The notes beneath the pieces were generated by a model. That model ran no database searches, was not told where the DNA came from, and worked only from the letters and a program-made list of their open reading frames with translations. A DNA stretch of 64,000 nt from a virus, in the IMG/VR virus record IMGVR_UViG_3300029953_000001; one strand, 5' to 3'. How positions within the stretch are numbered: the first letter of the stretch is position 1; every line of letters begins with the position of its first letter. Shown piece by piece: positions 35,351 to 54,896 of the stretch. The position numbers and the translations under genes are program-made.

Positions 35351-36658
35351 ACTGTGTGTATGGATATGAGTGCCGCAGCCAGTATAGTGTTGAATACCTT
35401 ACGTAGAGCAGGGTATGAGGGAAACCTCGTGGGGGGTTGTGTACGAGATTTAGTGTTGGGAAAAACCCCCAAGGACTTCGACGTTTCGACCAACGCACGC
35501 CCGGAGCAGGTTCAGCCTCTGTTTGAGAAAACCACTCCAGTCGGTGCCAAGTTCGGCGTCGTCGTGGTCATAGTGGACGGTCACCAGATAGAGGTTGCGA
35601 CGTACCGTGCAGATGGCGAGTACACCGATGGACGCCGCCCGGACGAAGTTCGCTACAGCGAGTCGGCTGAAGAGGATGTTCTTCGCCGCGATTTCACCAT
35701 GAACGGGCTGATGTCCCTGATACCGTTTGGCCCCGCTGGCGACCCGTCCAACTTCGTGGTTGACCACGTTGGCGGTTTGTCAGACCTGAGAGCCGGTTTG
35801 GTTCGCTGCATAGGCAACCCGGATGACCGTTTCATGGAAGACCCGGCACGCATGTTGCGTGCGGCTTCCTTCGTCGCCCGGTTGGGCTTCACTGTGGAGC
35901 AAGGTACGTTCGACGCGATAGTGCGAAATGACAGCCGGGTACGGATGGTTAGCATGGAGCGAGTTGCGGCTGAACTGAAGAAGCTGGTCGTTGGGCCGTT
36001 CGCGGTTCAGGGTCTGACTCTCTTGGCTTCTACTGGGTTGTTGACTCAGGTATTCGGACTGGGCTTCACGTCCTCTCTGAACTTCGCTTCGATGCTGGAG
36101 CGGTTCACCAAGTTCCCGACCAAAGACCCGTTGCTGGGTCTGGCGATGTTCTTTGCCGATTGTTCCAGTGACCTGCAAATGGCGATGGCTGTCAACAGCC
36201 TGAAGCTGTCGGTAGGAGAGCGGGATGTTGTCGTCAACGCTGTGGCTGAGAAGCTGGATAGAGTTCTCAACGCAGATGACGCCACCGTCAAGCGGTTCGC
36301 TCGTAAGCCGGGTGTCCTGTCGCATGGGGTTGACCTGTTCGAGCAGACTGTGAACATGACTCAGGGTAGGGACAGAGGCGGCTTGGACTTGCGTGAGACG
36401 ATGGCACGTGCGGTTCTGGTTGAACGCTTCCGGGCATTGACGCCGGAAACTGTCCGCCCGGTGCCGATGGTCATGGGACAGGATTTGATGGACATGGGCT
36501 TCAAGCCGGGGCCGATGTTCACTCGGGTCTTGTTCGCTGTGGAGACGGAGCAGTTGAACGGGAACTTTGACGAGAGACGCTTCGATTCACGGCAGGAAGC
36601 ATTGGACTTCGCACGAGGGTTCGCGATGTCGGACATGGAGTTGACGAATGGCCGATAA
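35351..36658 (+). CDS. cca: tRNA nucleotidyltransferase (CCA-adding enzyme) / poly(A) polymerase, class II
   Basis: GGCVRDLVLGKTPKDFDVST ... RDFTMNGL matches the GGxVRD...DxD...RDFTxNA head-domain signature. The start coordinate is approximate, within a few nt of 35351. Confidence 0.7.
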   Translation, partial: TVCMDMSAAASIVLNTLRRAGYEGNLVGGCVRDLVLGKTPKDFDVSTNARPEQVQPLFEKTTPVGAKFGVVVVIVDGHQIEVATYRADGEYTDGRRPDEVRYSESAEEDVLRRDFTMNGLMSLIPFGPAGDPSNFVVDHVGGLSDLRAGLVRCIGNPDDRFMEDPARMLRAASFVARLGFTVEQGTFDAIVRNDSRVRMVSMERVAAELKKLVVGPFAVQGLTLLASTGLLTQVFGLGFTSSLNFASMLERFTKFPTKDPLLGLAMFFADCSSDLQMAMAVNSLKLSVGERDVVVNAVAEKLDRVLNADDATVKRFARKPGVLSHGVDLFEQTVNMTQGRDRGGLDLRETMARAVLVERFRALTPETVRPVPMVMGQDLMDMGFKPGPMFTRVLFAVETEQLNGNFDERRFDSRQEALDFARGFAMSDMELTNGR

Positions 36659-37028
36659 GTACCCTCAGTCTGGCGACGTAGAGGGGTGGTTCGCATGGCA
36701 TCGCGAACATAACCCCAACGCAGACGAGGACGTGCGTTACTTCGATGTGCTGTGCATCTTCGAGTCGGAGTTGTGGTGCCAGCGGTCTAAGGTACGTGTT
36801 CTGCGTATCAGGAAGGCGGATACGTTGTCTGTTGAGGTTGACAGGTTGCAACGTATCCTCGCCTTCCTGAACCAGAACACGATGCACCACCGCAACCGCA
36901 CGTTCAAACAGTACCGGGACAAGCTACTGCATGGTCGTTACGTCTACGCCACGTTCAACAACATCCCGATAGATAATCCGTACGATGAAATCGAGATGGA
37001 AATTCTAAGGTGTGAGGCTACCCAATGA
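36648..37028 (+). CDS. hypothetical protein (126 aa)
   Basis: ORF with an ATGA overlap. Confidence 0.45.
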   Translation: MADKYPQSGDVEGWFAWHREHNPNADEDVRYFDVLCIFESELWCQRSKVRVLRIRKADTLSVEVDRLQRILAFLNQNTMHHRNRTFKQYRDKLLHGRYVYATFNNIPIDNPYDEIEMEILRCEATQ

Positions 37029-37309
37029 GGAAGCGTATCGACAGATTGGAGCAGACCCTGTTCGGGTGCCAGCGAAAGCTGGAACGAGCACGGGATAGAC
37101 GGCTCCGCATCCAGCGACTGTTGGAGATGGGTGAGAACGACCACCCGCTGTTCCGGGGCTTCATCGGCAAGCTGGAAGGTTGGCACCCGTCCCTCGATAA
37201 GGCACGTCACCCGAATGTTGAAGAGGCTCGTGCCTACAAGTCCACCCGCGACCCCGGCATGAGGTATCGCATCGTCAAGGAAATCCTCACGCGGAAAGTT
37301 GTTGGTTAA
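37025..37309 (+). CDS. hypothetical basic helical protein (94 aa); last gene of the plus-strand block
   Basis: ORF. Confidence 0.45.
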   Translation: MRKRIDRLEQTLFGCQRKLERARDRRLRIQRLLEMGENDHPLFRGFIGKLEGWHPSLDKARHPNVEEARAYKSTRDPGMRYRIVKEILTRKVVG

Positions 37310-37313
37310 GTAC

Positions 37314-37826
37314 CTACTTGGCAGAGCGAGAAGCTGCGGCAATGGCGGCGATACGGGCTGCGGGAATATCCTGAAGGCACGCCGCCGTCTGTGTCAGTTG
37401 GATAGCGTAGTTGGCCTCCCACGTCCCCGGCTCGACCAGAGCCTCGTACTCAAGATAGAACTCATCGTCAACGTCAACCTCTTCATCATCGTCCTCGTGC
37501 CCATACTCAGGGTCGAGATACATGGCGTCGGGTTCGACCATGAAGCCGTGGTTTCCGGCGAGACCCGGCAGGTCACCCGCCAGCTTGAGACCGGACACGT
37601 TCACCTTGAGCAGCACACTGGTCTCGTCGTGGTATGCGTCGGGCTTGATGCTCAGGTAGATGGGGTTGCAGCCGTACTTCTCGTGAGCCCACGTGCCAGC
37701 CTCAGTGAAGTTGACCTCGCTGTTTATCTTGAGCCCGTCCCGCAAGATGGCTTCAACTCGCGTCTTGTCCGTGGCGTGGTACATGATTCGCGGCTGGAGG
37801 AACTTACTCTGAAACTTCATACACAA
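37314..37826 (-). CDS. standalone ART-fold (ADP-ribosyltransferase-like) protein
   Basis: H-motif MYHATDKTRVEAILRDGLK. The block NPIYLSIKPD matches the PVYLAIKKP / PVWLSIKNP / PVYLSIKNP blocks of the ART domains in the giant proteins. Acidic C-terminus. Confidence 0.5.
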   Translation of the reverse strand: MCMKFQSKFLQPRIMYHATDKTRVEAILRDGLKINSEVNFTEAGTWAHEKYGCNPIYLSIKPDAYHDETSVLLKVNVSGLKLAGDLPGLAGNHGFMVEPDAMYLDPEYGHEDDDEEVDVDDEFYLEYEALVEPGTWEANYAIQLTQTAACLQDIPAARIAAIAAASRSAK

Positions 37827-38514
37827 CCTCGCTTGCAGGTTTGAGAATCAACTCATGGTAAAGCTTGTGGTTGACGGGTGGCTCAGGGCCGATGTAAACC
37901 GTTCGAGCCAAACGCATACGAGCCTCATGAATGAATCCGGCAGCGGGGAAAACGGTGCCTGATGTTCCAATGACAATCATCAGCGTGACCTTATCCAGTT
38001 CGGAGTCGATGCGATTCAACTCCAGCGGGGTCTCCTCGAAGAACACAATGTGGGGCCGGAGCAGAGCACCACACCACAGGCAGCGGTTCACATCTTGCAA
38101 GCTATCGTACAGAACCTTGTCGGTTACTGGGGCGGAGCACCCATCGCTGCATCGAGCCTTAGCCAACTCCCCATGCATGTGAATCATCCGCTGAGAACCA
38201 GCACGGTCGTGGAGGTCGTCCACGTTCTGCGTGCAGAGGAAGAAGCGGTCGCCCATCTTCTTCTCCAATTCAGCTAAAGCGTAGTGGGCAGGGTTAGGCA
38301 TAGCCAGAGCCGCTTCCCGGCGACGAGAGGAGTAGAAGTTCCACACCTTCCATGGGTCTCGTTCCCATGCCCCCGGTGTGCATACGTCCTCAAGCTTCTC
38401 TGTATTCCACGTCCCATCCTTGCTGCGAAACGCTGGGAGCCCACTCTCGACGCTGATACCAGCCCCGGTCAACACGAACACGTAGTCATTGGGAGATACT
38501 TTTACAGATTCCAT
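37804..38514 (-). CDS. SIR2-family NAD-dependent deacylase (sirtuin)
   Basis: GAGISVESGLPAFRS...FFLCTQNVDDLHDRAG...HMHGEL...CxxC...CxxC are classic sirtuin motifs. Start trimmed to ATG (MESVKV) at 38512-38514. Confidence 0.7.
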   Translation of the reverse strand: MESVKVSPNDYVFVLTGAGISVESGLPAFRSKDGTWNTEKLEDVCTPGAWERDPWKVWNFYSSRRREAALAMPNPAHYALAELEKKMGDRFFLCTQNVDDLHDRAGSQRMIHMHGELAKARCSDGCSAPVTDKVLYDSLQDVNRCLWCGALLRPHIVFFEETPLELNRIDSELDKVTLMIVIGTSGTVFPAAGFIHEARMRLARTVYIGPEPPVNHKLYHELILKPASEVVYEVSE

Positions 38515-38550
38515 CTTGCCATTATACAGCAACGGTGTTCTGCACTTCCA
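38515..38550 (-). promoter_or_regulatory. minus-strand promoter: GTGCAGAAC box + perfect TATAAT located 6 nt before the sirtuin ATG (leaderless)
   Basis: Minus-strand read: gtGCAGAACaccgttgctgTATAATggcaagATG. Confidence 0.45.
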
Positions 38551-38705
38551 CCTGTCCCATGGAGAACACGATGTACTCGGTCGAAGCCTGACCTGAGCCC
38601 TTACCATCGCGGATGTTATGGATGACAGCCCCATCATTACCGGTCATGTGGGCTAGTTTAGCGAGTGTGTCGGCGTCTATGGTCTGGTCTTCATAGCCAT
38701 TGAAA

Positions 38706-41288
38706 TTAAGCCCACTGAACCATCTGTTCAGGGGAGACGGCGGAGGTCTTGCCCTTGGTCAACCCCGTGCATCCACACTCAGCCGCGTTACGGCAGCTAC
38801 CATCTGGATTGTGAGCGGGGGTTGGGCACTGACATGTACCGCAGCGTTCCATGGGAGGCTTCGGTGTGCGGTCGGAGGTCTTCCCTGTGGCAAGCTCCCA
38901 GAACTTACGCAGGTCGTTGTCCGAGTTGATATACTCGTCCAGCACGTCACCATAGTGACGAGCGTAGGCAAGGGCCTCATCTATAGGCATTACCTTGACC
39001 ACCCGTGCTCCAGCCGGGTTCTCCACCCAGAACTCATTACCGAATCCACGACCCACCTGACCGTAGTTCTCGCGGGGTACCTGACTGAAGTCAATCAGGG
39101 CAGCGTAGGGGCGACTATTGCTGCGATTATCATCATGGTCGAAGTTGTAGTAACCGTCCCAGTGTTCCAGATGGGAAGTCACCATAAGGGCTCCCTTGGT
39201 CATCTGGTTGTCGGCCATGCTCGACATATCCCTTGGCCCCTTCTCCGGGTCAATGAAGAAGTTAGGGTCGGTGGTCACATGCCAGTAGTCCCCGTGCTTG
39301 ATGTCGTGGCTGAAATCCTTCTTGAACTCCTCGAAGGTGTCGCACTTCCTCGCCTCTGCCGCCAGCGGTTCAAGCTCCTGTGGAATCTTGGTCATAGGTT
39401 TGCGGCCAGCTACCTTGGTCTTATTGAGGTCGATTACATGTCGGCTCATCTTGTCATCGAAGTAAATCTTGTAGCGAGTCCGCAGACGTGCCCATGCCTT
39501 GTACGCATCCTTGGACATGCAACTGGCTGTATCCGAGTAGAAGCGAACGCACCCTCTCGCCTTTGCTATTTGAATCGCCCGGTCGTAGAGCTTCTGACCG
39601 ATACCCTGCCCCTGATAGTGTTTAGCTACCAATATCCCACGAACGAAGGCGACCTTGTATCCCCGCCCCCTTTTAACCTCGTCGCCCAGCATGATTTCAA
39701 TGGTGCCAACGTTTTCTCCGTCTATCCCTGCCTCGATGCGTACACCCGGTAGCGATGTACCTTCGAAAGAACTCTGCTCAGGGCTGATGTCACGCTCAGA
39801 CAACTCAATAGGTGCGGAGGGCTCATCGGCTCCGGTCTTCATCTGAATAACTTCAGCAGGGATTTCAGACCACCCCAGTTTCTTAGCAGCGAAGTAGCGG
39901 TGATGACCGTCTTCAATGTAATAGGCACCGTCTCCATAGTCGATGACGGTTATAGGTTCACGCAGTCCTTCCTTAGCCATAGACTGAGCGACGTGAGCTA
40001 TAATCCGTTCGTCTTGGTCTTCTCCCGCAGGAACAATCTTGTCCATGGGAATCATTACCGGCTGCATAGCAGCGGTCACACTCATGCTCTTCGGGTCAAA
40101 CTTACTGTTGCCGATAGCTGACTTGATTTGGTTCGGGAACCACGCGACGTAGTGAGTTTCATCGCCAACTTCGGCAATGATGCCATCGTATCCAGCCGCC
40201 TTACGCACAGCCTCGTTGAACTCCTTCACACTGTGACGATAGAAGTCATTAGCAAGGGTGAACAACTGGTACATGATGTCGGCGTTCCCATAGAGGCTTA
40301 CGGCCTGATTGATGACAGCGTTCTTCCCTTCAGAGTCCACATCACCAAAGTTCGTGAGAGCGTCGTCAAGCTCAGGAGACGCCATGATGATACGACGCAC
40401 CAGGGCAGTCGTCAGGTCAGGAGCCGACGCCTTATCGTTCGTGAAGTAGATTGGCTTCTTTATCGCCAGATAGACGGGCATGACGTTGCCGGCATCGCTC
40501 TGGTTTCGGCTGGTCGCGTAACCGGACGCGGTGTCCTTGTTGTTGGTGAAGTAAAAGCCGGAGCCTAGCTGGTCGTTACCCTGACCGGTGAACTCGTAGC
40601 TGAACTCCTTGATGTCAGCACCGGTGCCGTGATAGACACGCAGAGGACGGCCATGGTCATCGACCACCTTACTGCCCTTGAACCATGACATGAACGCGGG
40701 GTTCTCGGTAATGTCTCCGGGCTGGCTCATGAAGCTCTGGTCTTGCGTGGGAGCGGCTGCAATCTTGGCTCGTCCGTCATCCACCACCTGTATAGCCGCT
40801 GGGTTGAAGACGATATACTCAATTCCGCGATACGGGGACTCCTTGATTACACCGTCCGCCTCGCTCTGAAGGTTCAGGTAAGCGGAGATGACTCTTGATT
40901 TTTCGTCAAGGGCTCCATCCACATCTTCCGCGTGCTGCTCTGCCACTCGCCTATCCGTTGTGAAATACACACCCTTCGGATTCCCCGGAGCACCGCGAGG
41001 ATGTTGGGGTTCAAACTCATCGAAGTCCTTACGTGTCCCGTGATAAACCAGAACCGGCTGAGCACTCGCAGTCTTCGTACCATGCTTCTTCTGCATGTAC
41101 TCCAACGCCTTAGCTTCATTCTCAGCGTGGTCTTTACGGAACTTCTCAATCTCCTCGGGGTTGTGCAGCCATGCGTTGTCCGGGTTGTCCCAGTCCTGTT
41201 CGAGGTAACGCACCACGTCCATCCACGGTTCGTGAATGGCAAGAATCTGCGACGTGGGGATACTTCCCCGTGAGCCTAAGTTCCCCAT
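38706..41288 (-). CDS. polyvalent protein (860 aa): 2x ART-PolyVal-like + ParB-like nuclease + GNAT + Cys-rich tail
   Basis: Contains VLVYHGTRKDFDEF...GVYFT and FMSWFKGSKVVDDHGRPLRVYHGT...GFYFT...PVYLAIKKP...FPNQIKSAIGNS. ParB core: DGHHRYFAAKKLGWSEIPAEV. GNAT: HYQGQGIGQKLYDRAIQIAKARG. Confidence 0.75.
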   Translation of the reverse strand: MGNLGSRGSIPTSQILAIHEPWMDVVRYLEQDWDNPDNAWLHNPEEIEKFRKDHAENEAKALEYMQKKHGTKTASAQPVLVYHGTRKDFDEFEPQHPRGAPGNPKGVYFTTDRRVAEQHAEDVDGALDEKSRVISAYLNLQSEADGVIKESPYRGIEYIVFNPAAIQVVDDGRAKIAAAPTQDQSFMSQPGDITENPAFMSWFKGSKVVDDHGRPLRVYHGTGADIKEFSYEFTGQGNDQLGSGFYFTNNKDTASGYATSRNQSDAGNVMPVYLAIKKPIYFTNDKASAPDLTTALVRRIIMASPELDDALTNFGDVDSEGKNAVINQAVSLYGNADIMYQLFTLANDFYRHSVKEFNEAVRKAAGYDGIIAEVGDETHYVAWFPNQIKSAIGNSKFDPKSMSVTAAMQPVMIPMDKIVPAGEDQDERIIAHVAQSMAKEGLREPITVIDYGDGAYYIEDGHHRYFAAKKLGWSEIPAEVIQMKTGADEPSAPIELSERDISPEQSSFEGTSLPGVRIEAGIDGENVGTIEIMLGDEVKRGRGYKVAFVRGILVAKHYQGQGIGQKLYDRAIQIAKARGCVRFYSDTASCMSKDAYKAWARLRTRYKIYFDDKMSRHVIDLNKTKVAGRKPMTKIPQELEPLAAEARKCDTFEEFKKDFSHDIKHGDYWHVTTDPNFFIDPEKGPRDMSSMADNQMTKGALMVTSHLEHWDGYYNFDHDDNRSNSRPYAALIDFSQVPRENYGQVGRGFGNEFWVENPAGARVVKVMPIDEALAYARHYGDVLDEYINSDNDLRKFWELATGKTSDRTPKPPMERCGTCQCPTPAHNPDGSCRNAAECGCTGLTKGKTSAVSPEQMVQWA

Positions 41289-41884
41289 TGTACCCCCCGA
41301 TGGGTAAGGATGTGGTTTAGGTGGGTGTAAAATGCCACTTGTGATAATTCTCTTTTCATATAGTTACATACCTTACAGCATGAGACACAGTTTGCGTGCG
41401 TATACCCTATGCCACTATCTACTCGGTCTATACCACCATGTGTATACCGCCCGTGGTTTTTACCCTGTTCTTGATATGGAGGAACCCCACAATAATAGCA
41501 ATCACCTGTAGTAAGTAAATCGAAATCACTATTTGACAACTCCCATGGTAACCCCCGTTTACTGGCACATTTTTGATAGTCAGCTAGGACAGAATTCCTA
41601 CCTGCTCTGCCCGGAGCTAGTCTCCTTGCCTTTCCGTTTATAACGGCTTTCTCCCGACCTATGCACCCACAACTAAGACTTATAGCTGCGTTTAAAGAAT
41701 GAGCTTCTACAACTCGCTCGGTTCCACACTCACAATGGCAGAGCCACTGTAGCATAGTCTTCCCATCTTTTAGCCTTGTCGATTCGACCTGTCTAACAAC
41801 ATACCATCGCCCAACTTTACGTCCAGTTAAATCAATTGCCCTTGGCATACTACCCTCCGTATAAGGAGGGCGTAGTTGTTTCAT
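41276..41884 (-). CDS. HNH (His-Me finger) endonuclease; homing-endonuclease-like insertion between the polyvalent genes
   Basis: WLCHCECG...LSCGCIGR Zn-binding cluster and CYYCGVPP...HGGIDRVDSGIGY...NCVSCCKVCNYMK. Its 3' end overlaps the start of the 860-aa gene. Confidence 0.55.
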   Translation of the reverse strand: MKQLRPPYTEGSMPRAIDLTGRKVGRWYVVRQVESTRLKDGKTMLQWLCHCECGTERVVEAHSLNAAISLSCGCIGREKAVINGKARRLAPGRAGRNSVLADYQKCASKRGLPWELSNSDFDLLTTGDCYYCGVPPYQEQGKNHGRYTHGGIDRVDSGIGYTHANCVSCCKVCNYMKRELSQVAFYTHLNHILTHRGVQWGT

Positions 41885-41907
41885 TCACTACCGGAAATAA
41901 CCATTCA

Positions 41908-42414
41908 CTAACCAATAATGACGTGATGGTAACCTTTAGCCCACTCATCCAACATCTCTTGGCTAATCTCGTCCATCTTCTCGTACTGCCCTGTAGCCTC
42001 ATTCTTCTTATACTTGTCTGGGTAATCGGCTCTGTGGCTAATCTGGTCAACCGTAGCCCAAAACTCCACATATGGATGGTTACGCAAATCAGAAGTCGAA
42101 GGCTGACGGGTGGACGCCCAGATACCAGCGGACGGCCCTGTACCGCTCAGGTCATCTCCACGTGCCTTACTGGCATCCAGACCACTCGCACGAATGCTGT
42201 CCAAGTTCTCGGGCCGGGTGTAGTGCCACAGCCGTACCGTCCTCGGAGGGATGGGCTGAGAACCGGGGGCAGGGGGAACCTGTCCCTTCGGTTGAGGGTT
42301 GGCGGTCTTGGGCATGGTGAAACTTTCAACCTCAGTGAGGGCCGACTGTAGGTTACCGAGAGATGCTCCTTCCCAGTCAACATATTCGCCTTCCTCTTCA
42401 TCGAGGCTAACCAT
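41908..42414 (-). CDS. small ART-fold protein (DarT/PARP-like H-motif)
   Basis: RLWHYTRPENLDSIRASGLD resembles the NAD-binding H-motif of ART-fold enzymes. Acidic N-terminus. Confidence 0.35.
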   Translation of the reverse strand: MVSLDEEEGEYVDWEGASLGNLQSALTEVESFTMPKTANPQPKGQVPPAPGSQPIPPRTVRLWHYTRPENLDSIRASGLDASKARGDDLSGTGPSAGIWASTRQPSTSDLRNHPYVEFWATVDQISHRADYPDKYKKNEATGQYEKMDEISQEMLDEWAKGYHHVIIG

Positions 42415-42468
42415 GAATTCGTTCCACTCGCCCGTCGTGAGCTTAGACCACTTCTCCTGCCACCAAAT

Positions 42469-45400
42469 CTAAATATGCTGGGGTGGGATGGGTTGGGTCG
42501 TCCAATATTCACCGTTGCCGACCTCTACCTTGATTTCTGGGGGTAGCATAATACGCAAGCAAAGGGGAATACCTGAACGTCCAGTATTCTGCACCCGTTC
42601 TCCAAAAAGAATCCGGGCATAGAACATTGCGTCCTTAGGGGTGTCGGCAAGAAATACCTTACCTATGGATGTATTTCCTAAATCACCCCCCCATTGTGGC
42701 TCCTTCGACGGAAGCAATCCCTGCGTTGCAATACGATTCAACCGTTTGGATGACGTGGCATGATAGTAAGTCCTCGTCATCGCCGCCGCCTTCCGCACCA
42801 TGTAACCCAGAGCCGGGTCGTGGCCTTCCTCTTCCTCGAAGCCGTGTGACTTGTACCAGTCCTTCAGCTTGTCGCCGGAGATTCGGTCGCCTTCACCGTA
42901 GGGTGAGGCTGTGAGTTCTACGGTGACGCCGTGCTGGTCTGCGATGTTGATAATACGCTTGAGCACGATGGAGCCAACGCCGGAATTGGGTTCAACCGAA
43001 CGGATGCCACGCAGACGTAGACGACCCTCACGCTCATCCACTTCAAAGAAGAGAGCGGGTTTGCCCTGAGCGAAGAAGACACGCTCCTTCGGGTTCTCGG
43101 GGTTAGCCGGGAACTTCTGGTAGATGGCTTCAAGTGCAGGTTGTAGTCTGATGTCAGGCACATCAGTCGAACCTTCCTTGCTCATTGGGACTTGGATGTC
43201 ACGATTCGGGTTGGGCTCAGGCTCTCCCAATTGCGGAAACACGACTGAACCCTTCAACCAATTAGTCGTGTTTGTCTGAGGGTCTTCTCCCACAAAATTC
43301 AACTTGGGGTACTTGCCCACCACGCTCGTGATGTTATATGTACGACCATCGAGTTCTACCTGACGACCAACGTACTGCGAACGCCACCACAGGTCATTAT
43401 TCTTCACCGTCTCAGGGTCGAACTTATTCCAGAACGCAGTGGCTTCATCGGACAGGCAGTTCTCCGTGGGCATGAGCCTCCAGCCGCGACCGGCACACCA
43501 CTCCTTAGCGACGGTGTAAAGTTTTTGAGCTACACCTTTGCGACGGTACATGGGTTTGACATAGGACTTCCAGACGTGCGTCTCCTTGCGTTCCTTCTCT
43601 TCATCAGTGAGGCCGCTTGGAAACACAGTGACGTAGCCAATACGACGCTTGCCGATGTAAGCACAGAACGTGCCTGAGCCGTAACTGTCCTCTCGCACTT
43701 CAACCCGGTTGATGTCGAACGCACCCTTCTTACCCCTTCCATGTTCCCATGATTGGTCTACGTCCAAGTTCCCCGACATGATGACGGGCGCGGTGTCCCA
43801 CAGCTTCTGCCACTTCACAGCCATGTCACCCCAACGCAGGAACGCAGAGTCCCAGCCAACGCCAATCTTCTTGGTCTTGAAGTCGGTGTCGTTCGTCTTG
43901 ACGACTTTCCACGGGTCGGTCATTCGCTTCTCAAGCTGAGCCTTCTGAAGCGGAGTCATGGAGGCCGACCATGCGAAGTATCGCATATTGTGAGCGTCAC
44001 GCAAGCATACGAAGAATTCCTTGTTCGGGTCTGGTGCCTTGGGTGCCTTTGCTCCGGGCACAGCCACCGGCGTGCCTTCGTCCCATAGTTTCTGTAGCTG
44101 AGCCTTCATCTCCTCCCCTTGAGGATATGCCCAACCTTGTCCAATCGGCGTTCCCCGCTTCAGGTAGTTATCGTCGGTGGTGAGGAACAGCTTACCCGCA
44201 CCCGCGTTCACCTGAGACTCGGCACGGTTTCTCTGCTTCGGTGATAGCTTTACCGAAGTCGCATAGGTGAGGTTTCCCCTGAACATATTTGTAACTAAAA
44301 CATAGAATTGCTTGGTGTTTTCATCCTGAACGTAAGACTCATCCGACTTAGGTGTGATGAAGTTGGCACCAAATTCCGCGTTGAATACAGCAGCACGCTT
44401 CAGCCACTCTTCGCCATGACCGAAGTCAGAGTGGGCCTTCTGAAGAAGCCGTGCAGTTCGAGGATTCAGGAGTTTCCAATACGTCAGGTTCCAGTCGTGA
44501 TGGCACAGTTCATGAGCAACCACCCGGCGAAGGGTATTGTCGTCGTTGATGATAGACTTCTGAATCTTAATGACCGTGTTGTTTACATCCAATAAAGGAG
44601 TGTACTCGCAACGACCCAACCACCGCTTCTTCAATGTGTTGACGACTTGAATTACGGGAAGGGGAAGACCGGGAGCTATGTACTTCATGTACTCCTTGAC
44701 GATAGCCATCACCTTGGCCTCGTCGTCAGCGACCTTCGCTATCTTCGGCAGATTGTACATCTCCGACGTAACAGCGGAGGCCGGAACCTTCTCCACCTTC
44801 AGCACGGCCTTGGGATTGAACACGACAACCCACTGCTCATTCTGAAACCCCATAGACGGGCTCTCGCTGGCGGCGTCAACGTTGTGGTCTTGCAGGAATT
44901 GAAGCAGGGCCTTCCCCTTAGCACCAGCACCAGCCTCATAGTTGACCACGAGATTGATGAGAGTGCTGGCCGTGAACATATCCTTATTCATGCGAGTGCA
45001 GTTGGCACGCAAGTCAGCGGCAATATCCTTGCCCTTACCGCCTAGCCGCTTCATTGCGAACTGGATACCCTCCGCCAGAGGGATGAGCACGTCATCGGCA
45101 AAGTTGAGGTTATCCTTCACAGTGACGAGGAATGTGGAGCCGCCACCCTTGGCATACTTGCACGCACGCTGGTAGCTGGTGGTCAGGTAGAGACCCGGTC
45201 CCGCCTCATAGCGTCCCTTGGTTGGTGCTTGAATGTCGATAGGGCCGGTGATGCGTCCACCATGCCAGAGCTTGCGGAAGCCTGTACCTTCTTGAGCCGC
45301 CTTCTTTATCATGGCAGCAGGAATCTTGTCCTTGATGTAAATCTCATCAGGCTCGAAGTTGTTGTCGTAAATGCGAGTACCAGCAGGTATTGTCACAGCA

Positions 45401-47286
45401 AGCACTACACTATCCCCACTCACATAGTGGGCACAGGTGTCTTCGGTTCCAAGAAATAGCTTGGGCTCCTTACCGCTGCGTACGGTATAACGTCCGCGAG
45501 GTTCCAGACCCTTCTTGAAGATGCCATTGATTCGGTCTGGTGTGGTGGCGTGATGCAACGTCGTGGGCTGCTTCAGCACTGCCGAGTCCACTCCATTTAT
45601 GTTCTCAATATCCAAGCCCTGCTCTTCTACAATAACCTTGAACAGGTGGGAGTATTCCTCGTTCTCGTAGTCCTTATACAGGTAGGCTTCCTTTGGCTCC
45701 AGCAAGGACATCTGACGAGGGTCGTGCTTGGCGACGAATAGCCGCTCTTCCTCCGTCTGTTTCTTCCATGGCTTCTTGAGGATTTGCTTCAGGCGTGCTT
45801 CTACATCCGGGTCGGCGGTCGCGGTGTGCATTTTCCCACTCTTGACCAACTTTAAACGCTCAGGTGGAATCGTCTGCCATACAACCCACCACGAGTCGCC
45901 CTCATACTCGGGGTTGTCCGCAATGTCTGTGGTCTCGTCAGGTTCTACATCATAACCCGTCAGGTCAGCTTCCCACACATCGGTGTACCTGCTCTCTTGG
46001 GTGAGCTTAGTGTGGAAAAATATACCATCGTGAGCGGCCAGTGCAAACTCAGTGGACAGACCATGCTTCATGATGCTCTCTCGGTTCATCACATCGGAAT
46101 CATGATAATAATGCACGTCAGTAGACGCAACGACCACGCTGGGTGCCTTGATGGGCTTCATGCTCATCTCTTCAGGAGTCAAAGCACGGTCTAGCTGGCA
46201 GAACACTGAGGGTCTAAAAGAGTCCATAGGTACCCAGCATTCAAAGCACACAAGCTTACCAGCCTTCAGTCCACGGTCTCGCCCAGCCTGATGCAAAGCA
46301 GTCTCAGCGTCGGTCGCGAGGTACGAGTCTTGACGCAGACCTTCCTTCTCAATGATGAGGGCAGTGGGTTTCGGAGTCGCATGATACAGTCGTGCCCGTC
46401 CTTGAGCGTCGGTGGGGAGACCACTTCGTTCCACCCAATTCTGGGTGCGTGCCAGACGGTCTTCGGGGGTGCGGTCTTGCCAGTAGACGAACTCTTCGCG
46501 TGCGGCGATAATGCTGTTCGTATCGCTGTATGTCCCTGAATTGCGTGTGGCCGACTTGATTTGCGTTGGGCTGAACACCACGAAGATGTCACTCTCCACC
46601 GGGCCATCGAACACACCCTTCGCAATGATGCCATCATGACCCCCCTTACGGGCAGCATCGAACTCCTGAGCACGGGGAACCACGTTAACGACTAAAGGGT
46701 TCTGAATCTTGAGGTAGGCGGCGGTGACGAATGTGTCCAGATTCAAGGAAGCGTTGTAGAGCCGTGCTTCCTTGGTGGCTTCTTCCTTAGCCATCTCATA
46801 GGTGGGGAACGGCCCCACATCAAAGATGTGCTCCGTCTCCCCGTCCTCGCTCTCAGCGACAGCGGCGACGGCAGCATAGTATTCGCCGGGGCGACCATAG
46901 GCTATTGGGTTGTCCTCGTCCGCTTCGAACTTGTCCTTGTAGTTGGCGAACCACGTTGCATTATCACGCTCAGACGTGAACCAGATAGCCCCATCCTTCG
47001 CCTTGCTGACGCAACCAGTTCCCTCACACTGGAGGTCGAAGCTGGTGAGCCATGGAGAACGGCTACCGTGATAAACGACGCGAGGAGTCCAGTCCTCGTT
47101 AACAACTTGGGACTTGCCGAACCACGATTTGAACGCGGGGGTCATCTGCACCGGGGGAACGGCACCCGGAGCTTGGAGTTCGTCGGCTGGCACAGCAGCG
47201 ACTACCGCTTTTGTTTCAGCGATTTCGGCTGCGGTCATGCTCCGAGTACCCTTGCAGGTTTGGGGGTCAAGCAGTTGATTCTTCAT
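42469..47286 (-). CDS. polyvalent protein (1605 aa): several ART-like H-motif domains + SprT-like Zn-peptidase + GNATs
   Basis: PAFKSWFGKSQVVNE...RVVYHGS; further H-motifs RLYHATPKP, LHHATTPDRINGIFKKGL and the C-terminal YYHATSSKRLNRIATQGL. Metallopeptidase: VVAHELCHHDW...GHGEEW. GNAT: YRRKGVAQKLYTVAKEW. Confidence 0.75.
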   Translation of the reverse strand: MKNQLLDPQTCKGTRSMTAAEIAETKAVVAAVPADELQAPGAVPPVQMTPAFKSWFGKSQVVNEDWTPRVVYHGSRSPWLTSFDLQCEGTGCVSKAKDGAIWFTSERDNATWFANYKDKFEADEDNPIAYGRPGEYYAAVAAVAESEDGETEHIFDVGPFPTYEMAKEEATKEARLYNASLNLDTFVTAAYLKIQNPLVVNVVPRAQEFDAARKGGHDGIIAKGVFDGPVESDIFVVFSPTQIKSATRNSGTYSDTNSIIAAREEFVYWQDRTPEDRLARTQNWVERSGLPTDAQGRARLYHATPKPTALIIEKEGLRQDSYLATDAETALHQAGRDRGLKAGKLVCFECWVPMDSFRPSVFCQLDRALTPEEMSMKPIKAPSVVVASTDVHYYHDSDVMNRESIMKHGLSTEFALAAHDGIFFHTKLTQESRYTDVWEADLTGYDVEPDETTDIADNPEYEGDSWWVVWQTIPPERLKLVKSGKMHTATADPDVEARLKQILKKPWKKQTEEERLFVAKHDPRQMSLLEPKEAYLYKDYENEEYSHLFKVIVEEQGLDIENINGVDSAVLKQPTTLHHATTPDRINGIFKKGLEPRGRYTVRSGKEPKLFLGTEDTCAHYVSGDSVVLAVTIPAGTRIYDNNFEPDEIYIKDKIPAAMIKKAAQEGTGFRKLWHGGRITGPIDIQAPTKGRYEAGPGLYLTTSYQRACKYAKGGGSTFLVTVKDNLNFADDVLIPLAEGIQFAMKRLGGKGKDIAADLRANCTRMNKDMFTASTLINLVVNYEAGAGAKGKALLQFLQDHNVDAASESPSMGFQNEQWVVVFNPKAVLKVEKVPASAVTSEMYNLPKIAKVADDEAKVMAIVKEYMKYIAPGLPLPVIQVVNTLKKRWLGRCEYTPLLDVNNTVIKIQKSIINDDNTLRRVVAHELCHHDWNLTYWKLLNPRTARLLQKAHSDFGHGEEWLKRAAVFNAEFGANFITPKSDESYVQDENTKQFYVLVTNMFRGNLTYATSVKLSPKQRNRAESQVNAGAGKLFLTTDDNYLKRGTPIGQGWAYPQGEEMKAQLQKLWDEGTPVAVPGAKAPKAPDPNKEFFVCLRDAHNMRYFAWSASMTPLQKAQLEKRMTDPWKVVKTNDTDFKTKKIGVGWDSAFLRWGDMAVKWQKLWDTAPVIMSGNLDVDQSWEHGRGKKGAFDINRVEVREDSYGSGTFCAYIGKRRIGYVTVFPSGLTDEEKERKETHVWKSYVKPMYRRKGVAQKLYTVAKEWCAGRGWRLMPTENCLSDEATAFWNKFDPETVKNNDLWWRSQYVGRQVELDGRTYNITSVVGKYPKLNFVGEDPQTNTTNWLKGSVVFPQLGEPEPNPNRDIQVPMSKEGSTDVPDIRLQPALEAIYQKFPANPENPKERVFFAQGKPALFFEVDEREGRLRLRGIRSVEPNSGVGSIVLKRIINIADQHGVTVELTASPYGEGDRISGDKLKDWYKSHGFEEEEGHDPALGYMVRKAAAMTRTYYHATSSKRLNRIATQGLLPSKEPQWGGDLGNTSIGKVFLADTPKDAMFYARILFGERVQNTGRSGIPLCLRIMLPPEIKVEVGNGEYWTTQPIPPQHI

Positions 47287-47313
47287 ACCTATCTCTGTAA
47301 TAGGGTTGGAAAG

Positions 47314-50300
47314 TTATTGAGTCGCGTCGAACTCCTGACGCAACTTCGCCATCAAGTTTTGATCATTCGTCACGTCTACTCGCGTGTAGCCACGGTCGTT
47401 GAAGTAGTCGATGAACTCCTGAGTCAGTATCGGCTCCGGGTGCTCCACGCCATCCACCGTGATTTTGTCTGGTGAGAATACAGCTAAGGTGTCAAACTCC
47501 CCCCTGGTCTCCACCATCCATACACCGTCGAATCCGGCTTTCCGAATATAACGAACAAGGGGTTCAATATAGTCATAACCTGCATCTTCAAGGTCATCAA
47601 TAACCTGTTCCCGAGACTTGAAATATCCTGTTACCGAGTCCAGTTTATCCCCCATGCTATCCAGTAGAATCTGCTGATGCTTCGGGTCACGTGGGTTGAA
47701 TACGTTGTCGCAATCCACTGTGCATTCGTATACGTGGGGTACAGGATTATCCAAAGCAAAGGACTCAGCCAATGATTTGTTCGGTGTGAAGAAAATCAAA
47801 CCATGGTCATTCCATTTCGATTCAAACTCCTTAATCGCATACCCGGTGCCGTGATACATACTAGGGTAAGCAGCGGCGGTCTTCATCTCCCCGACAATAC
47901 GAACCTGATTCGGTTTGAACAGGATGACATCGAACGTCCCGTCTGGGTCTGGCAGGACAACGCTATCGAAACCGTCACGCTTCAACTCTCCAATGGACTT
48001 ATTCTCGTACTCCGCCCAGCCAGCCGGGTTCTGTACGTTGATGTAGCAGCCAAGAATACACTTGCTGGAGTTCGCTCCGGCCTCTCCCTTTTCAATACTG
48101 GCTTTGTCGGATGCAACCCAGAACAATCCTTGGGCACCGTGACTCATATTCACGCGAGTGAAGGGCTCGCGGGTGCCATGGTACACCATCTGGGGCACCT
48201 TGGAGTCGGGGAACGGCTTCGCTGCCGCTTCCTTACCGAACGGGCGGTCAGGTTGAGCCCACAGTGACTTACCCGCTGGCGTCTGCTCGGTGGATGGGAT
48301 GACGGTGTATCCGGTCTGACGTTCTGCATAGACGTACATCGCTGTCGCCAGCCCCTGACGATGATAGGTTGCGGTGATGTCGAGGGACATGGGGTCAAGC
48401 TTCTTGTCCTCACGCTTGGCGAAAGTGACGTAGCCGAGGGGGGTTCCATCCTTCAATGCACGCACGGTGACCATCGGCGTACCAATGTACGACTTGCCGT
48501 GTTCAATCGTTAGCTGGAAATCCTTATACCGTCCATCAGGAGAAACGGCAACCGGGCCGGAGGCGGTCTTCTTTCGTAAATCTAGCTTATAGGGTGAGAC
48601 CATGGGGTATCGCTTGCTCAATTTCTCCCATGCTTTATAAGCATCGGGGGACATCCTCCAGTCTAGGTCGGAGATGAGGTACCTGCGCTTCTGCTTCCGG
48701 GATTCCACAATAAGACGGTCGTACAACATTTGACCTAGACCCGTGCCCTTCCATTCATCTCGGATGATGGCTTTCTTGACTCGCACGGAATCCCACTTGT
48801 CGGCATCGTCTGAACTCAGCCTTCCTGTAGAGTCATAAGCACTCGCCTCCAGAAACCCCGGTGGTGTAGCGTGGGGGTTAGCTTCAGGGTCTCGTGCGTT
48901 GATATCAATTGTAAAGTCCGTGGCTAGTACACTCCACTTTAACTTGGCGAGGTCAGCTTCGCGGTCATTGAATTTGGAGTAACCAAAGTCAGGGCTGGCG
49001 GTCTTCTCCTTGTATTTTTTGAAATCAGAAGGGAGCCACACGATTTTCCAGTGTCTCTCGTACTTGCCCGTCAACTCACACTTCGACTCACCCGGCTTCT
49101 CCACGTGATCGCACACAGTTTCAGCGACCGGTTTCTTGTCGAAGGTGAAGATGATCTTCTCTCCCTTGAGCACGCGAGGACGAGTGCGGAACGCCCAAAA
49201 CTCCCACTGCCCCTCAGGAACCGGCGACCAGAAGTGGTCACGTGCCGACTTAGGCACTTCGATGTAGAAAGCGTAAGGGCCGGTGTAGTTAGCGGCGGCG
49301 GTCTTCACCGGGTCTGTACCTTCCAACTTAATCTGCGATGTATCCCATACCATGTAATGCTTGGTGCCGGGATTGAACTTCAATCCACGACGACGGAACA
49401 CCGAACTCGGTGTCATGATGATGCCGTCAAAGCCCAGAGCACGATACACGTCAGCTACGAACTGTCCGGGCTTACTGATGTTTAACCCCCATACTTCCAG
49501 ACGCTTTGCACCTTCCTCGAACTCCAGTGCGGAGAACGTGGTCTTCTGAATCACGCTGTTGATGAGCACGTCGTATATCTGCTCGACCCATTTCACCTGA
49601 TGCTTCGTCGCGACTGACTCAAGAGCTTGCTTGAACGTCTCGTCCGCTGTGAACGTTGTGCCGCCGCGACTGACCTTCACCGGCTTGTTCAACTCGATGC
49701 GGACACGCTTGATGCTGGGCTCGTTGCCTACAATCTCTTTCTTGGCTTCAGCAAAAGCATCGGCCAGAGCTTCCTTGTACTCCTCGGAAACCTCTCCCTC
49801 TTCTCCATCATGGTCATACTTCATCATCGCAAGGTCGTCTTTGTCATACCATTCATTGAGAATCTTGTCGCGAAGAATCTCAAGGCGACCAGCGAGGTCG
49901 TCGTTGTCCGGGTTGGCATACTGCTTAGCCTCGGTGTAGTCACTGGTGAAGAAGAACGCCTTGCCGTACCAACTGGACTCAGACGCATGTTCGAGCGAGA
50001 ACGCTTCGAACCCCTGTGTCGTCCCATGGAACACATCGGAAATCTGTGCCGCCGACTTCATCGGCGAGGGAATCCAGAAGTCCACCTTCTGCTCGTTGGG
50101 GACTACTCCCTTGCGGAAGTGCAGGATTTCAGACCAGCCTTGGTGATAGGTCTTGCCATCTTGAGGCTCAGCAGCCTCTTCCGGCGACACGTTCGACTGG
50201 CCGAAATGCGTCCACCCAAGTTCTGTGAATGCCTGAATGATACTGTCCCTCGCCACTGCTTGCGTAGTAAGTAAGTCGATGTCATGGAAAGACTCTCCAC

Positions 50301-53300
50301 GTTGTTCGACGCCCCCCACCAGCTTGGTGGAGATGCCCTTGCTTTGCAAATCGCCAATCAACGCCTGAGCGTCTTCCTGTGTGTGCAGGGTAGAGGTCTT
50401 GTTCCACTCGGCATCGCGTAGCTCAATAAACCGCTTGATTTGGTCAGGCCCGACCGGATAGGCGTCGATAATCTGAGACGCGGGGATAGGACTCATGGTC
50501 TTTATCCACTGTCCACGATTACCCCCCTGAGACATCGGGTCGTTATAATCCACTTCCCACTCTTCCTCACCCGGCTTGAAGCGGACGATGGAAATCTTGC
50601 CGCTGCCGGTCTTCTTGTTCAACTCCCAGTCCATACGACCAGCCCAACGGAGAGCATCGAACTCCTCAGTCATGGCGTAGACTTCTCCCTCACCATAACG
50701 CGCACCGCTCTCAGCGACAGCCCAGTTGGATGGCTTGAACCGTTGCAGACCGTTCTTCTTTATCTTAGCCACGTTGGTGGTCTTGGTAACGTGATACAGC
50801 ACTTCGTTGTATCCTTCGCCGGAGGCGGTCATCGCAAGGTCAGGGTACTCACGGTCGAGAAACTCCCTCTGCCAGTGATTGAACTGGTCACGAAGGTGCT
50901 GCTCTTCCGAGATGCCCGACCGCTGCCTGTCCATCTTCTCCGCAAGCTCAGGGTAAAGCTCACGCATGGCAATTTCAGTCTCATCCCGAGTCGGCTTGCG
51001 GTCGGCGACCTTTTCACGCTCCATGATGTCCAACGCAGCCGCGAGGTTTTCCTTGTAGCTGTCAGAGATAACCTTGCACGCAGGGCATGAACCGTTGTAG
51101 GACTCCAAGTCCTCAAAGCGAACACGGTTGCAGTTCTTCTCGTGGGTCATTGCCGCCATCTTGTTCAGGGGCTCCACGCTACGCTCCATTACAGGGAGAC
51201 CCTGTTCGGTGGTTGTGACTACATTGAACCCCAACCGCTCATACCAAGTCTGGAGGTCGAATCCCTCAACCTGTTCACCATCCACCGTTGCCAGCAGGAT
51301 AATGGAGTTCGCTCCATGGGCACGTGCAGCGTCAATGAACTGAGCGACGAGTTGCTTACCCAAGCCCGTACCCCGCTTATCGAGGTCAACACCGACTGAG
51401 CCTAAGGATGCCCAAGGCTCTGCTTCAGACAGCATCATTTCAAGTTCTTCCGGGTCTTCCATCTGAACAGCTTCAGCCCAGCTACGCAGTTCGTCGTAAT
51501 CGTCAAGGATGCGTCCACGCACATAGCCGCCATCAACCTTGATGTCTATCTGGTCGTAGGATGCCAGCTTGGCCGTCTTTACCAACGGTATAAACTTGGA
51601 GTCCCCGGTCACCCCGCCCAATTCTACTGGATACTCCTTAGCCAAGCGATTCCAGATGATAGCGGCGTCCTGCGTCTGAGGGATTCCCTGATATAGTTTG
51701 ACGGCTCCCTTCTTCTGTGCCAGCTTGATGGCTTCCTTGTACAGGAGCAGACCGATGCCACGTTCTCTGAACTCAGCCAGTACCTCGACACCACTAACAA
51801 AGAAGGCTACCTCTTCATCCTTCTGATTGCGAACATGATACGGAGAGAGATTGATGAAGCCTATTCTCTCATCTCCAAGATACGCATCATCGAGGTAGGC
51901 ACTGATGAGAAACCCATAACGAGGGGAACCTGCCACTCTGAAGGTGATGCCTTCTGGTGTGGGGTATTTGGCCGCTGTCTTAGTGTCTGTGGACGCATCG
52001 AATGTATCCACGCGAAGGATGGCGTCAACCGGGATGCCCACACCATACTCAGTGCTGTAGTTGTGAGAGCCGAAGTTTTCGAAAAGCTCAGGGCACTTGC
52101 TGCGGTCAACAACTACCACAGCGTACTGGTCAGTCGGCTTTATATCAACCCGGTTGTTTGTGCTCCGCATCATCACACGAGCAAAATCACGGGCCACACT
52201 TGGGCTAGTGGAGAGATGCACAGTATCGTCGCTCCCCGGCGTGATACCCTGCTGCTCGATGAGACGGGCGTTGTCCACGGAGGTTCCGTGGTAAAGCAAC
52301 TGGGCTGAAGCCAGCTTGAACGTCTGAGCGGCAGTGACATCCTCACCGTTCATCCAGTTATACCAAGCGTCCTCACTCGCGTGGAGAAGGTTGGTGATGT
52401 CCACCACAGGAATCGTCTTGCGACCCACGCGGTGATACGCTTCCAAACGGTGGGCACCGTCAAGGAACTTTCCATCCGCCATGAGGATGGGGTCGAATTC
52501 AAAGCTGGGGTCTTGCTGAAGCATCGCGATGTACTTGGTAACGGCTGCTTCACTCACGGCCCTGTCCATTGTGGCATAAAGAGGCTCAACTGGAACGGAG
52601 CCAGCCTTCACCTTCGGCTCATCCGCGATACCGAAAAGGTTGTTGAATACGTCGGTCTCATCGTATCCCGCACGTTGCAGGAATTCCACGCGGTCGTAGA
52701 CCATATAGGCGATGTCGCCCTGTGTATCGCGAGGCAAGCTGTCGATACCTACGGGTTTGAGGCCAGCAGCGGTCAATGACTTGCGGTACCGCTTGCCTGT
52801 GTCGTAGTCATCTTCATACTTCTCATGAGTTACAGTCGGGTCGGTCTTGATACGCTTCTTCCAGATAGCCTTGGCTCCCGGCTTCAACGCATGGTCGGAG
52901 TACACCGCTTCGAAGCCTTCCTTCTTGGCATACTCGAAGAGATGGCGGTATAGTTCCGAACCAATTCCTTGGCGACGGTAATCCTTGTCCACGGTGATGA
53001 ATCCAATTTCAAGGGCCGAAGGGTCGTTCCAATCTATCTTGGCTGAAACCTGTCCAACCAACTTCAAATCGTGGTAAGCTTCGATGCGATACGAACCCTT
53101 AGCGTTCATCTCCTTATAGCGAGTCTTTGCCGCTGCGGTCTTTGGCTGCACCACACGAATCTGGTCAGGGTGGAACGCTATCCACGCTTCATTCCGGTAC
53201 TGGGCTCCATCGTATCCTTGAGCCTCAAGCTCCGCAGCAATCTCCTTGAAGTTGGGAACACTCGGACTGATGTGCATCGCGTGGAGGTCAGCCGGGTTGT

Positions 53301-54771: not shown

Positions 54772-54896
54772 ATTAATCCCTAATAATCAACTCGGTAGGT
54801 CAGTTTTGTGGAGTGACTTCCACGAAGTCCGGCCCGAGTTCAAGTTGTTCCTGAACCACCGGAATCTCCTTGGGCTTCGGTTGGGCCTTCTGGCTG

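Follow-up and report, generated by a model that had tools for sequence, protein, structure and literature searches.

The window analysed here is a 64,000-nucleotide (nt) stretch of viral DNA, IMG/VR record IMGVR_UViG_3300029953_000001. The locus under study, at positions 37314 to 42414, ends in two overlapping minus-strand genes, one for a sirtuin and one for a small protein, here called o170, with an ADP-ribosyltransferase (ART) fold. They are the last two genes of a co-directional array of about 24 kb that encodes polyvalent effector proteins in an uncultivated, very large phage. The best explanation of the locus, and one that we consider somewhat likelier to be right than wrong, is that the sirtuin and o170 are free-standing host-takeover enzymes with which the polyvalent array ends. 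Phage sirtuins and polyvalent effectors with ART and GNAT domains have already been described, and taken together the cluster represents a known type of system. The two genes are:

37804 to 38514, minus strand: sirtuin of the CobB/SIRT5 class (class III), 236 amino acids (aa), recognised by Pfam SIR2, PHROG 2162, CobB entries of the PDB and alignment
37314 to 37820, minus strand: o170, a 168-aa single-domain protein (public protein P0001), whose open reading frame (ORF) extends over 37314 to 37826

A CobB-type sirtuin encoded by the phage

By its sequence, the sirtuin is a canonical zinc-containing enzyme of the CobB/SIRT5 class with a complete active site. The Pfam SIR2 model (PF02146) matches it with 152.9 bits against a cutoff of 24 (E = 1.1e-44, model positions 1-180 of 180), and a phmmer comparison with the E. 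coli CobB structures 1s5p and 6rxj yields an E-value of about 1e-59. In a five-way alignment with E. coli CobB, the sirtuin of the related contig L012 and the sirtuins of phages 4MG and GAP32, its identity reaches 48% with CobB and 52% with the L012 protein. Its motifs are GAGISVESGLPAFR (residues 17-30), FYSSRRR (60-66), TQNVDDLH (95-102), HMHGEL (112-117) and GTSGTVFPAAG (183-193), within which the nicotinamide adenine dinucleotide (NAD+) motifs span residues 17-25 (GAGISVESG), 95-100 (TQNVDD) and 183-188 (GTSGTV). The SIR2 catalytic histidine was checked on the CobB alignment and is present as His114 of HMHGEL (codon 38173-38175). Moreover, Cys122, Cys126, Cys145 and Cys148 fall in the region aligned to the zinc module of CobB, and the Y-x-x-R motif of the acyl pocket (FY61SSR64RR), a class III feature for the recognition of acidic acyl groups, aligns to FYNARRR of CobB. 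The original prediction of complete sirtuin motifs at 37804-38514 is therefore borne out by the Pfam match, the CobB alignment, the NAD+ motifs and the zinc-module cysteines.

The protein shares GAGxSxESG, TQNxD, the catalytic histidine of the HG motif, GTSxxVxPAA, Y-x-x-R and the four-cysteine zinc module with E. coli CobB and human SIRT5 (PDB 1s5p, 6rxj). It differs from CobB in being phage-encoded, in lacking the N-terminal basic extension of long-form CobB and in the C-x3-C spacing of its first cysteine pair. It also scores below the equivalog cutoffs of the NCBIfam CobB models (236.5 against 318 for NF001755; 189.3 against 320 for NF040867), and is therefore a diverged homologue rather than an equivalog.

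Comparison with the sirtuins of rV5-like and Rak2-like phages (4MG gp107 and GAP32 gp119) places it further. These too are phage-encoded SIR2 proteins amid genes of nucleic-acid and NAD+ metabolism, and Iyer et al. 2022 (PMC9503650) connect sirtuins of this type with RNA repair or NAD+ salvage. However, the window sirtuin is only 31% identical to them, whereas they group together at 40%, and both lack the zinc-binding cysteines and the TQN motif. Their neighbours are genes for RNA ligase, phosphoesterase, NUDIX and NadV proteins; the neighbours of the window sirtuin are polyvalent genes. Because of this low identity, and because the 4MG and GAP32 proteins lack the cysteines and TQN, the window sirtuin belongs to the cellular CobB type and not to the phage clade associated with RNA repair.

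A sirtuin in a phage is ordinary in itself, since a tblastn search finds a homologue in 1011 deposited phage records. The best of these matches, in the partial genome of vB_EcoS-813R8 (L015, ON470619.1), was rejected as a phage sirtuin: it lies in the E. coli chromosomal segment lolD-lolE-nagK-cobB-ycfZ-ymfA-potD within a phage-labelled record, and was accordingly treated as CobB itself. The start of the window gene at 38514 ('MESVKV') is backed by the L012 sirtuin, which also begins with 'ME' and whose ATG is preceded by an in-frame TGA two codons earlier. A longer, 277-aa version starting at 38637 was rejected, as homologues begin with 'ME' and the L012 gene has that in-frame stop just upstream.

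The sequence upstream of the sirtuin gene

Two small features lie between the sirtuin and the preceding gene, which encodes an 860-aa polyvalent protein:

38521 to 38526, minus strand: TATAAT hexamer, 6 nt before the sirtuin ATG, read from the sequence
38522 to 38647, minus strand: 41-codon ORF downstream of the 860-aa gene and upstream of the sirtuin, a predicted gene in the metagenome assemblies L001, L002 and L003

The hexamer had been taken for the promoter of a leaderless sirtuin transcript, which is possible but unsupported. A sigma-70 promoter scan did not call TATAAT at 38521-38526, and a -35 element is absent. With 6 copies in the window where 7.1 are expected, TATAAT is at chance level. 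Inspection of the sequence before the ATG at 38514 reveals no Shine-Dalgarno element, and the TAA inside the hexamer doubles as the stop codon of the 41-codon ORF. Upstream of the L012 sirtuin, a TATAAT stands 14 nt from the gene with a GAGGG Shine-Dalgarno sequence in between.

The product of the 41-codon ORF (STEYIVFSMGQVEVQ) resembles, as judged by eye, the segment GIEYIVFNPAAIQVV of the 860-aa protein, which corresponds to the last strand of its ART-PolyVal domain. The ORF is probably a relic fragment of a decayed ART-PolyVal domain.

A family of small proteins represented by o170

Its occurrence on many contigs, its homologues at 47-52% identity, a family of 257 clusters and the retention of conserved residues establish o170 as a real gene. 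Its start is the ATG at 37820, with GAGG 6 nt upstream, and it has a 17-nt overlap with the sirtuin stop. The identical protein (P0001) is encoded on more than 21 contigs, the longest of 431,749 bp.

No Pfam, PHROG, NCBIfam or PADLOC model matches o170. A family profile was built from P0001 and two homologues (47-52% identical by BLAST) and searched against 1.84 billion cluster representatives, which recovered 257 proteins with E <= 1e-3, including 164 with E <= 1e-10; almost all of them span the full 150-residue domain. Most family members are solo proteins of 145-190 aa. In some giant proteins, such as P0004 (2250 aa) and P0005 (1985 aa), the domain is C-terminal; in others, such as P0046 and P0079 (about 950 aa), it is N-terminal and followed by a NUDIX domain, an arrangement with a parallel in Bodo saltans virus, for which a KptA-Nudix fusion is reported (PMC9503650). 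Searches of phage and viral sequences returned little: tblastn with two family members found none in 50,697 deposited phage genomes, only 5 weak PHROG matches arose among 90 members, and a viral contig search with a 3-sequence alignment of o170 found no relatives.

These proteins, from 257 metagenomic clusters at 50% identity, add to the ART inventory a new family of about 150 aa that Pfam, PHROGs and NCBIfam all miss. Its members stand alone, carry a NUDIX fusion or form the last module of a polyvalent protein, and the family is a small and tractable candidate for the biochemistry of nucleic-acid or protein ADP-ribosylation.

Fold and conserved residues of o170

Model calculations and profile comparisons together make it well supported that o170 carries an ART fold, nearest to those of DarT and Tpt1/KptA. 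An AlphaFold2 run on a 3-sequence alignment gave a mean predicted local distance difference test score (pLDDT) of 34.7 and was replaced by one on a 90-sequence alignment, with a pLDDT of 88.4 and a predicted template-modelling (TM) score of 0.83. A Foldseek search with this model ranks KptA/Tpt1 and DarT1 at the top, followed by TreX, CARDS toxin, pertussis S1, DarT, scabin, PARP15, Arr and others; a fold search of BFVD gave weak matches (TM < 0.5). In agreement, the family profile matches the PDB sequences of KptA (E = 0.0018) and DarT1 (E = 0.017) at the motif 'YHxT...I...GL', and sub-threshold Pfam matches within the family are to PTS_2-RNA (22/90), PARP (14/90) and DarT (7/90).

In the 90-member alignment, H15, G29, L30 and P53 are invariant, and T17, I25, Y49, D83, G92, T143 and I152 are at least 90% conserved (Y49 and D83 at 99%); S57 is likewise among the conserved residues. 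Position 55, within 'PIYLS', is always Y or F, in equal shares. o170 itself retains every family-conserved residue, and its H15 aligns to the corresponding histidine of KptA and DarT1. When aligned by eye, the equivalent of strand 5 of DarT and PARP reads T143-x-T145-A-A, which contains neither Glu nor Asp.

The differences from known families are as instructive as the similarities. The Pfam DarT model (PF14487) misses o170, which is 40 residues shorter than DarT, ends in a family-specific 'TxTAAxLxxIPPxRI' segment and has no strand-5 Glu at the position expected from the ssDNA ADP-ribosyltransferase DarT/DarT1 (PDB 8baq, 7omv); no DarG or macrodomain partner is adjacent to it. The RNA 2'-phosphotransferase Tpt1/KptA (PDB 9ld3, 8tfi, 1wfx) is the top Foldseek and profile match, and the o170 family may likewise lack a catalytic Glu; however, the match is limited to the C-terminal NAD+ lobe (about 83 residues), the N-terminal Arg-His-Arg-Arg RNA lobe has no counterpart in o170, and the Pfam model (PF01885) does not match. 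With ART-PolyVal (PF18760, Tox-ART-HYD2 clade), o170 shares its use as a polyvalent module and a possible H-Y-D residue set; in contrast, its helix after the histidine is of the '...I...GL' type of PARP, Tpt1 and DarT and not of the 'YHGT..F..F' type.

Further, the ART-PolyVal hidden Markov model (HMM; cutoff 31.2 bits) matches neither o170 nor the 41908-42414 ORF (o168, see below) at E <= 0.1, and the o170 family aligns to the nine ART-PolyVal copies of the window with an hhalign probability of 27%. The original prediction had placed a standalone ART-PolyVal-type protein at 37314-37826; the gene is real and its product has an ART fold, but its start moves to 37820 and, by the HMM and hhalign results, it is not of the ART-PolyVal family.

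The polyvalent gene block and an amber variant within it

The window is phage DNA, carrying tail-fibre and head-decoration genes (61781-63980), an RNA ligase (22846-23871) and a CCA-adding enzyme (35312-36658), and a megablast of 36500-43000 against deposited phages found no DNA-level match. From 61695 down to 37314 every gene lies on the minus strand, in the order 825-aa, 1442-aa, 2485-aa, '1605-aa', 168-aa ORF, 202-aa HNH/EndoVII-like ORF, 860-aa, sirtuin and 170-aa ORF. The features around the sirtuin and o170 are:

47314 to 61695, minus strand: three further genes of the polyvalent block (825-aa, 1442-aa and 2485-aa products), from Pfam
41908 to 47286, minus strand: polyvalent gene of about 1776-1792 codons, interrupted here by an in-frame TAG (Pfam; 1776-aa gene call in L001)
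42469 to 42471, minus strand: amber codon TAG that ends the '1605-aa' ORF (base-by-base comparison with L001, L002 and L003)
41908 to 42414, minus strand: o168, the C-terminal 168 codons of the polyvalent gene (frame and assembly comparison)
41276 to 41884, minus strand: HNH/endonuclease VII-like ORF of 202 aa between two polyvalent genes (PHROGs 1035, 374 and 3118)
38706 to 41288, minus strand: 860-aa polyvalent protein with two ART-PolyVal domains, ParB_N and GNAT (Pfam)
35312 to 36658, plus strand: CCA-adding tRNA nucleotidyltransferase, convergent with the sirtuin/o170 pair and about 650 nt from it (Pfam PolyA_pol and PolyA_pol_RNAbd; PHROG 2244)

The giant genes are textbook polyvalent proteins in the sense of Iyer et al. 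2017 (PMC5512222), who predicted that such proteins enter the host with the phage DNA and act after injection. The 825-, 2485-, 1605(+168)- and 860-aa products combine ART-PolyVal, GNAT and ParB_N domains, with weaker SprT-like and Tpt1-like matches. In particular, Pfam finds ART-PolyVal and GNAT in the 825-aa protein; in the 2485-aa protein it finds ParB_N, several GNAT domains, ART-PolyVal in three stretches and, at 31.9 bits where the cutoff is 26, a Tpt1/KptA-like module. The gene at 41908-47286 encodes ART-PolyVal, four H-x-T...GL modules, a weak SprT-like match, GNAT, a C-terminal YHAT module and then o168. The 1442-aa protein (54897-59225, minus strand), midway along the block, matches neither Pfam nor PHROG models. 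The HNH/EndoVII-like ORF and the beginning of the 860-aa gene overlap by 13 nt; a homing endonuclease may have inserted here. The proposal that the locus is centred on NAD+ is supported by its wealth of NAD+-using domains: ART-PolyVal, the Tpt1-like module, the sirtuin and, 6 kb away, a PARP protein.

The original prediction had also treated the ORF at 41908-42414 as a second standalone ART, so that ART proteins would flank the polyvalent operon. Six metagenome contigs match the region 37000-47400 at 99.98-100% identity, and the independent assemblies L001, L002 and L003 are 99.98-99.99% identical to the window over their covered parts of this 10.4-kb region. The sole difference common to all three is at position 42471, where the window has T (TAG) and the assemblies have G (GAG, Glu) on the minus strand. 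o168 is in frame with the '1605-aa' ORF, starting 18 codons past the TAG, and in L001 the entire stretch is called as a single 1776-aa gene. Because the frame is the same and three assemblies read GAG, o168 is the tail of the polyvalent protein and not a standalone gene; the truncation is a nonsense polymorphism or a sequencing error. Stop-codon recoding was rejected, since the codon is GAG in the other assemblies and the standard code leaves every other giant ORF open. As o168 is a fragment of a polyvalent gene, ARTs do not flank the operon on both sides. The case is a caution for annotation, as one amber variant created an apparently standalone gene.

The predicted H-motif of o168 (RLWHYTRPENLDSIRASGL) is present. 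It belongs to the class [aromatic or aliphatic]-H-x-[TS]...G[LIFM], of which the block proteins contain 8 occurrences against 0.026 expected from shuffled sequences, far more than chance would give, with one more in the PARP gene. No comparison established an ART fold for o168 itself: Pfam returns only DUF7002, below threshold (E = 0.005-0.01), a phmmer search of PDB sequences found nothing relevant, and the hhalign probability against the o170 family is 49%. A word-indexed protein search with o168 found no homologue; it missed even the 1776-aa L001 product in the same collection, maybe a limit of the word index.

Module shuffling and gene pairing

The proposed domain shuffling is real, though the best case for it is not the one that had been cited. 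P0004 and P0005 combine ART-PolyVal, GNAT, cREC and ParB domains and end in an o170-type domain that is 52% (P0004) or 57% (P0005) identical to o170. Over the rest of its length, P0004 aligns in blocks, at 52-67% identity, with most of the '1605-aa' protein of the window, and it is this orthologue with an o170-type C-terminus that establishes the shuffling. The module is thus fused to the orthologous polyvalent protein in a related phage and encoded here by a separate gene after the sirtuin, which clearly shows it passing between polyvalent and solo form among related phages. By comparison, the C-terminal 'YYHATSS...' module of the '1605-aa' protein, on which the shuffling claim had been based, is only weakly similar to the o170 family (hhalign 73% over 53 columns, N-terminal half only), and phmmer with this module found nothing relevant among PDB sequences.

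In L011 and L012, the two closest relatives, the o170 homologue is likewise directly preceded by a sirtuin; these contigs measure 1.4-1.5 kb and encode proteins about 50% identical to those of the window. The L012 sirtuin is, moreover, downstream of polyvalent-type genes, the upstream ORF ending in a ParB_N-like motif. More distant contexts of the family (L007-L010) share with the window just the o170 homologue and, in L008, the CCA-adding enzyme. The L008 contig contains at 795-5463 a co-directional run of genes for a CCA-adding+HD enzyme, a 214-aa ORF, a PTP-like protein (5e-4), a KptA-like protein (1e-4) and the o170 homologue, followed by IS605 OrfB/TnpB; this run looks like an RNA-end repair cassette.

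Proposed mechanism and alternative explanations

If the sirtuin and o170 are host-takeover enzymes, the sirtuin would act as an NAD+-dependent protein lysine deacylase, removing acetyl groups and probably, as the Y-x-x-R motif suggests, succinyl groups, with His114 as the general base and O-acyl-ADP-ribose and nicotinamide as products. o170, translationally coupled to the sirtuin through the 17-nt overlap, is a solo copy of the effector module that forms the C-terminal domain of the orthologous polyvalent protein in related phages. It may bind NAD+ via H15 (strand 1) and Y49 and Y55 (around strand 2) and transfer ADP-ribose to a macromolecular target, with D83 as the likeliest candidate for the catalytic acid. 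The pair would then rewrite host or phage protein acylation and ADP-ribosylation during infection, as components of the host-takeover set to which the ART- and GNAT-rich polyvalent proteins also belong.

Several observations weigh against this mechanism. Should strand 5 lie at T143 or T145 instead, o170 would be without the catalytic acid of protein-modifying ARTs. The weakly matched neighbours and fusion partners of the family (KptA-like, 2H-like, CCA-adding, NUDIX) point to RNA-end processing rather than protein modification. Further, the four distant contexts (L007-L010) contain no sirtuin, and the pairing may therefore be the inherited synteny of one phage clade and not a functional link.

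The main rival, possible if unlikely, is that the o170 family, perhaps with the sirtuin, is a minimal analogue of KptA/Tpt1 in RNA-end repair. NAD+ would be used to remove or tag the terminal phosphates of tRNAs cut by host anticodon nucleases, with the neighbouring CCA-adding enzyme and the phage RNA ligase as partners. Both of these genes are present in the window, and KptA/Tpt1 is among the nearest structural and sequence relatives of o170. The genomic contexts of the family are also consistent with it: in L008, the o170 homologue directly follows the KptA-like gene (E about 1e-4), in company with a PTP-like phosphatase and the CCA-adding+HD enzyme; in L007, a 2H-like protein is encoded two genes upstream; and P0046 and P0079 are NUDIX fusions, while cREC is shared within the polyvalent proteins that carry an o170-type domain. 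NAD+-dependent RNA repair centred on sirtuins and KptA, with the same partner domains, has been proposed for phages by Iyer et al. 2022 (PMC9503650, section 3.7.3). However, o170 has about 11 residues before strand 1 and hence lacks the N-terminal RNA lobe of Tpt1, with its catalytic Arg-His-Arg-Arg tetrad, and its strongly acidic loop (EDDDEEVDVDDE) is unfavourable for RNA binding. The sirtuin, being of the cellular CobB type, falls outside the cysteine-less phage clade tied to RNA repair, the neighbour matches in L007 and L008 are all below Pfam thresholds, and the closest fused relatives of o170 are polyvalent effectors.

The remaining explanations are less likely. CobB-type sirtuins are protein lysine deacylases, which would fit a safeguard in which the sirtuin strips lysine acylation made by the polyvalent GNATs, either protecting phage or host machinery in the producing cell or resetting targets later in infection, while o170 is an unrelated passenger effector. 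Pfam does recognise several RimI-like GNATs in the block, which the sirtuin gene directly follows on its strand, and the L012 sirtuin has a similar position downstream of polyvalent-type genes; even so, this is quite improbable. The argument is purely contextual, the GNATs of the polyvalent clade may acetylate N-termini or non-protein substrates, which a sirtuin could not reverse, and polyvalent proteins are predicted to work after injection and not in the producing cell (PMC5512222). It is similarly doubtful that o170 is a catalytically dead pseudo-ART serving as a binding or decoy module, like the pseudo-PARP domains of PARP13 and TASOR. The equal use of Y and F at position 55, the site of the canonical strand-2 Tyr, and the strand-5 equivalent T-x-T-A-A without Glu or Asp would agree with a dead enzyme; on the other hand, H15 is present in 90/90 members and Y49, P53 and D83 in at least 99%, which is active-site-like conservation, and Phe could stack on nicotinamide in place of Tyr. 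Least probable of all, indeed very improbable, is an anti-defence role in which the sirtuin, the ART or both counter host immunity based on SIR2, TIR or NAD+ depletion. NAD+ is a known phage-host battleground (PMC9503650), and NAD+-using domains are abundant at the locus. However, the sirtuin and o170 consume NAD+ and would therefore deepen its depletion instead of easing it, the scanned subset of window ORFs contains no NAD+ salvage gene, and no Macro or ARH-type eraser was seen. Neither protein resembles defence SIR2 or other PADLOC models, the sirtuin matching no family at E <= 0.01 with the defence SIR2 models (ThsA, DSR, SIR2-HerA, SIR2-pAgo) included; the partner genes of defence SIR2 are not seen beside it, where the neighbours are polyvalent genes and o170. 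The suggestion that the sirtuin might counter host SIR2 defences thus finds nothing in its support, the protein being of the housekeeping CobB type.

A more far-reaching version, which we regard as improbable, is that the o170 family is a new and catalytically distinct minimal ART clade with an H-Y/F-D or H-Y-T site, working with the co-translated sirtuin as a two-enzyme NAD+ system. It could take the form of a new NAD+-dependent route of RNA-end healing without the Tpt1 RNA lobe, or of a writer/eraser pair adjusting the chemistry of the ART and GNAT domains in polyvalent effectors. The adjacency of sirtuin and ART in three phages that are roughly 50% diverged would then reflect function and not mere synteny.

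Other genes of the window

Outside the polyvalent block, the 554-aa protein at 29919-31583 (plus strand) has a full PARP catalytic domain (Pfam PARP, 3.8e-19) with the motifs 'ELWHGTR' and 'GVYFS' and a weak WGR match; this eukaryote-like PARP of the phage lies 6 kb from the sirtuin. The 861-aa protein at 4208-6793 (plus strand) matches the Major Vault Protein shoulder (8.6e-25) and vault repeat (1.6e-9), and the occurrence of such a homologue in one phage with a PARP and a Ku protein is unusual. Genes for a Ku beta-barrel homologue (7e-30), an R2K-clade ATP-grasp protein and an ATP-dependent DNA ligase are found at 11-712, 2053-2841 and 16648-17457, all on the plus strand; together with the PARP gene, they make up a set resembling non-homologous end joining or DNA-end repair.

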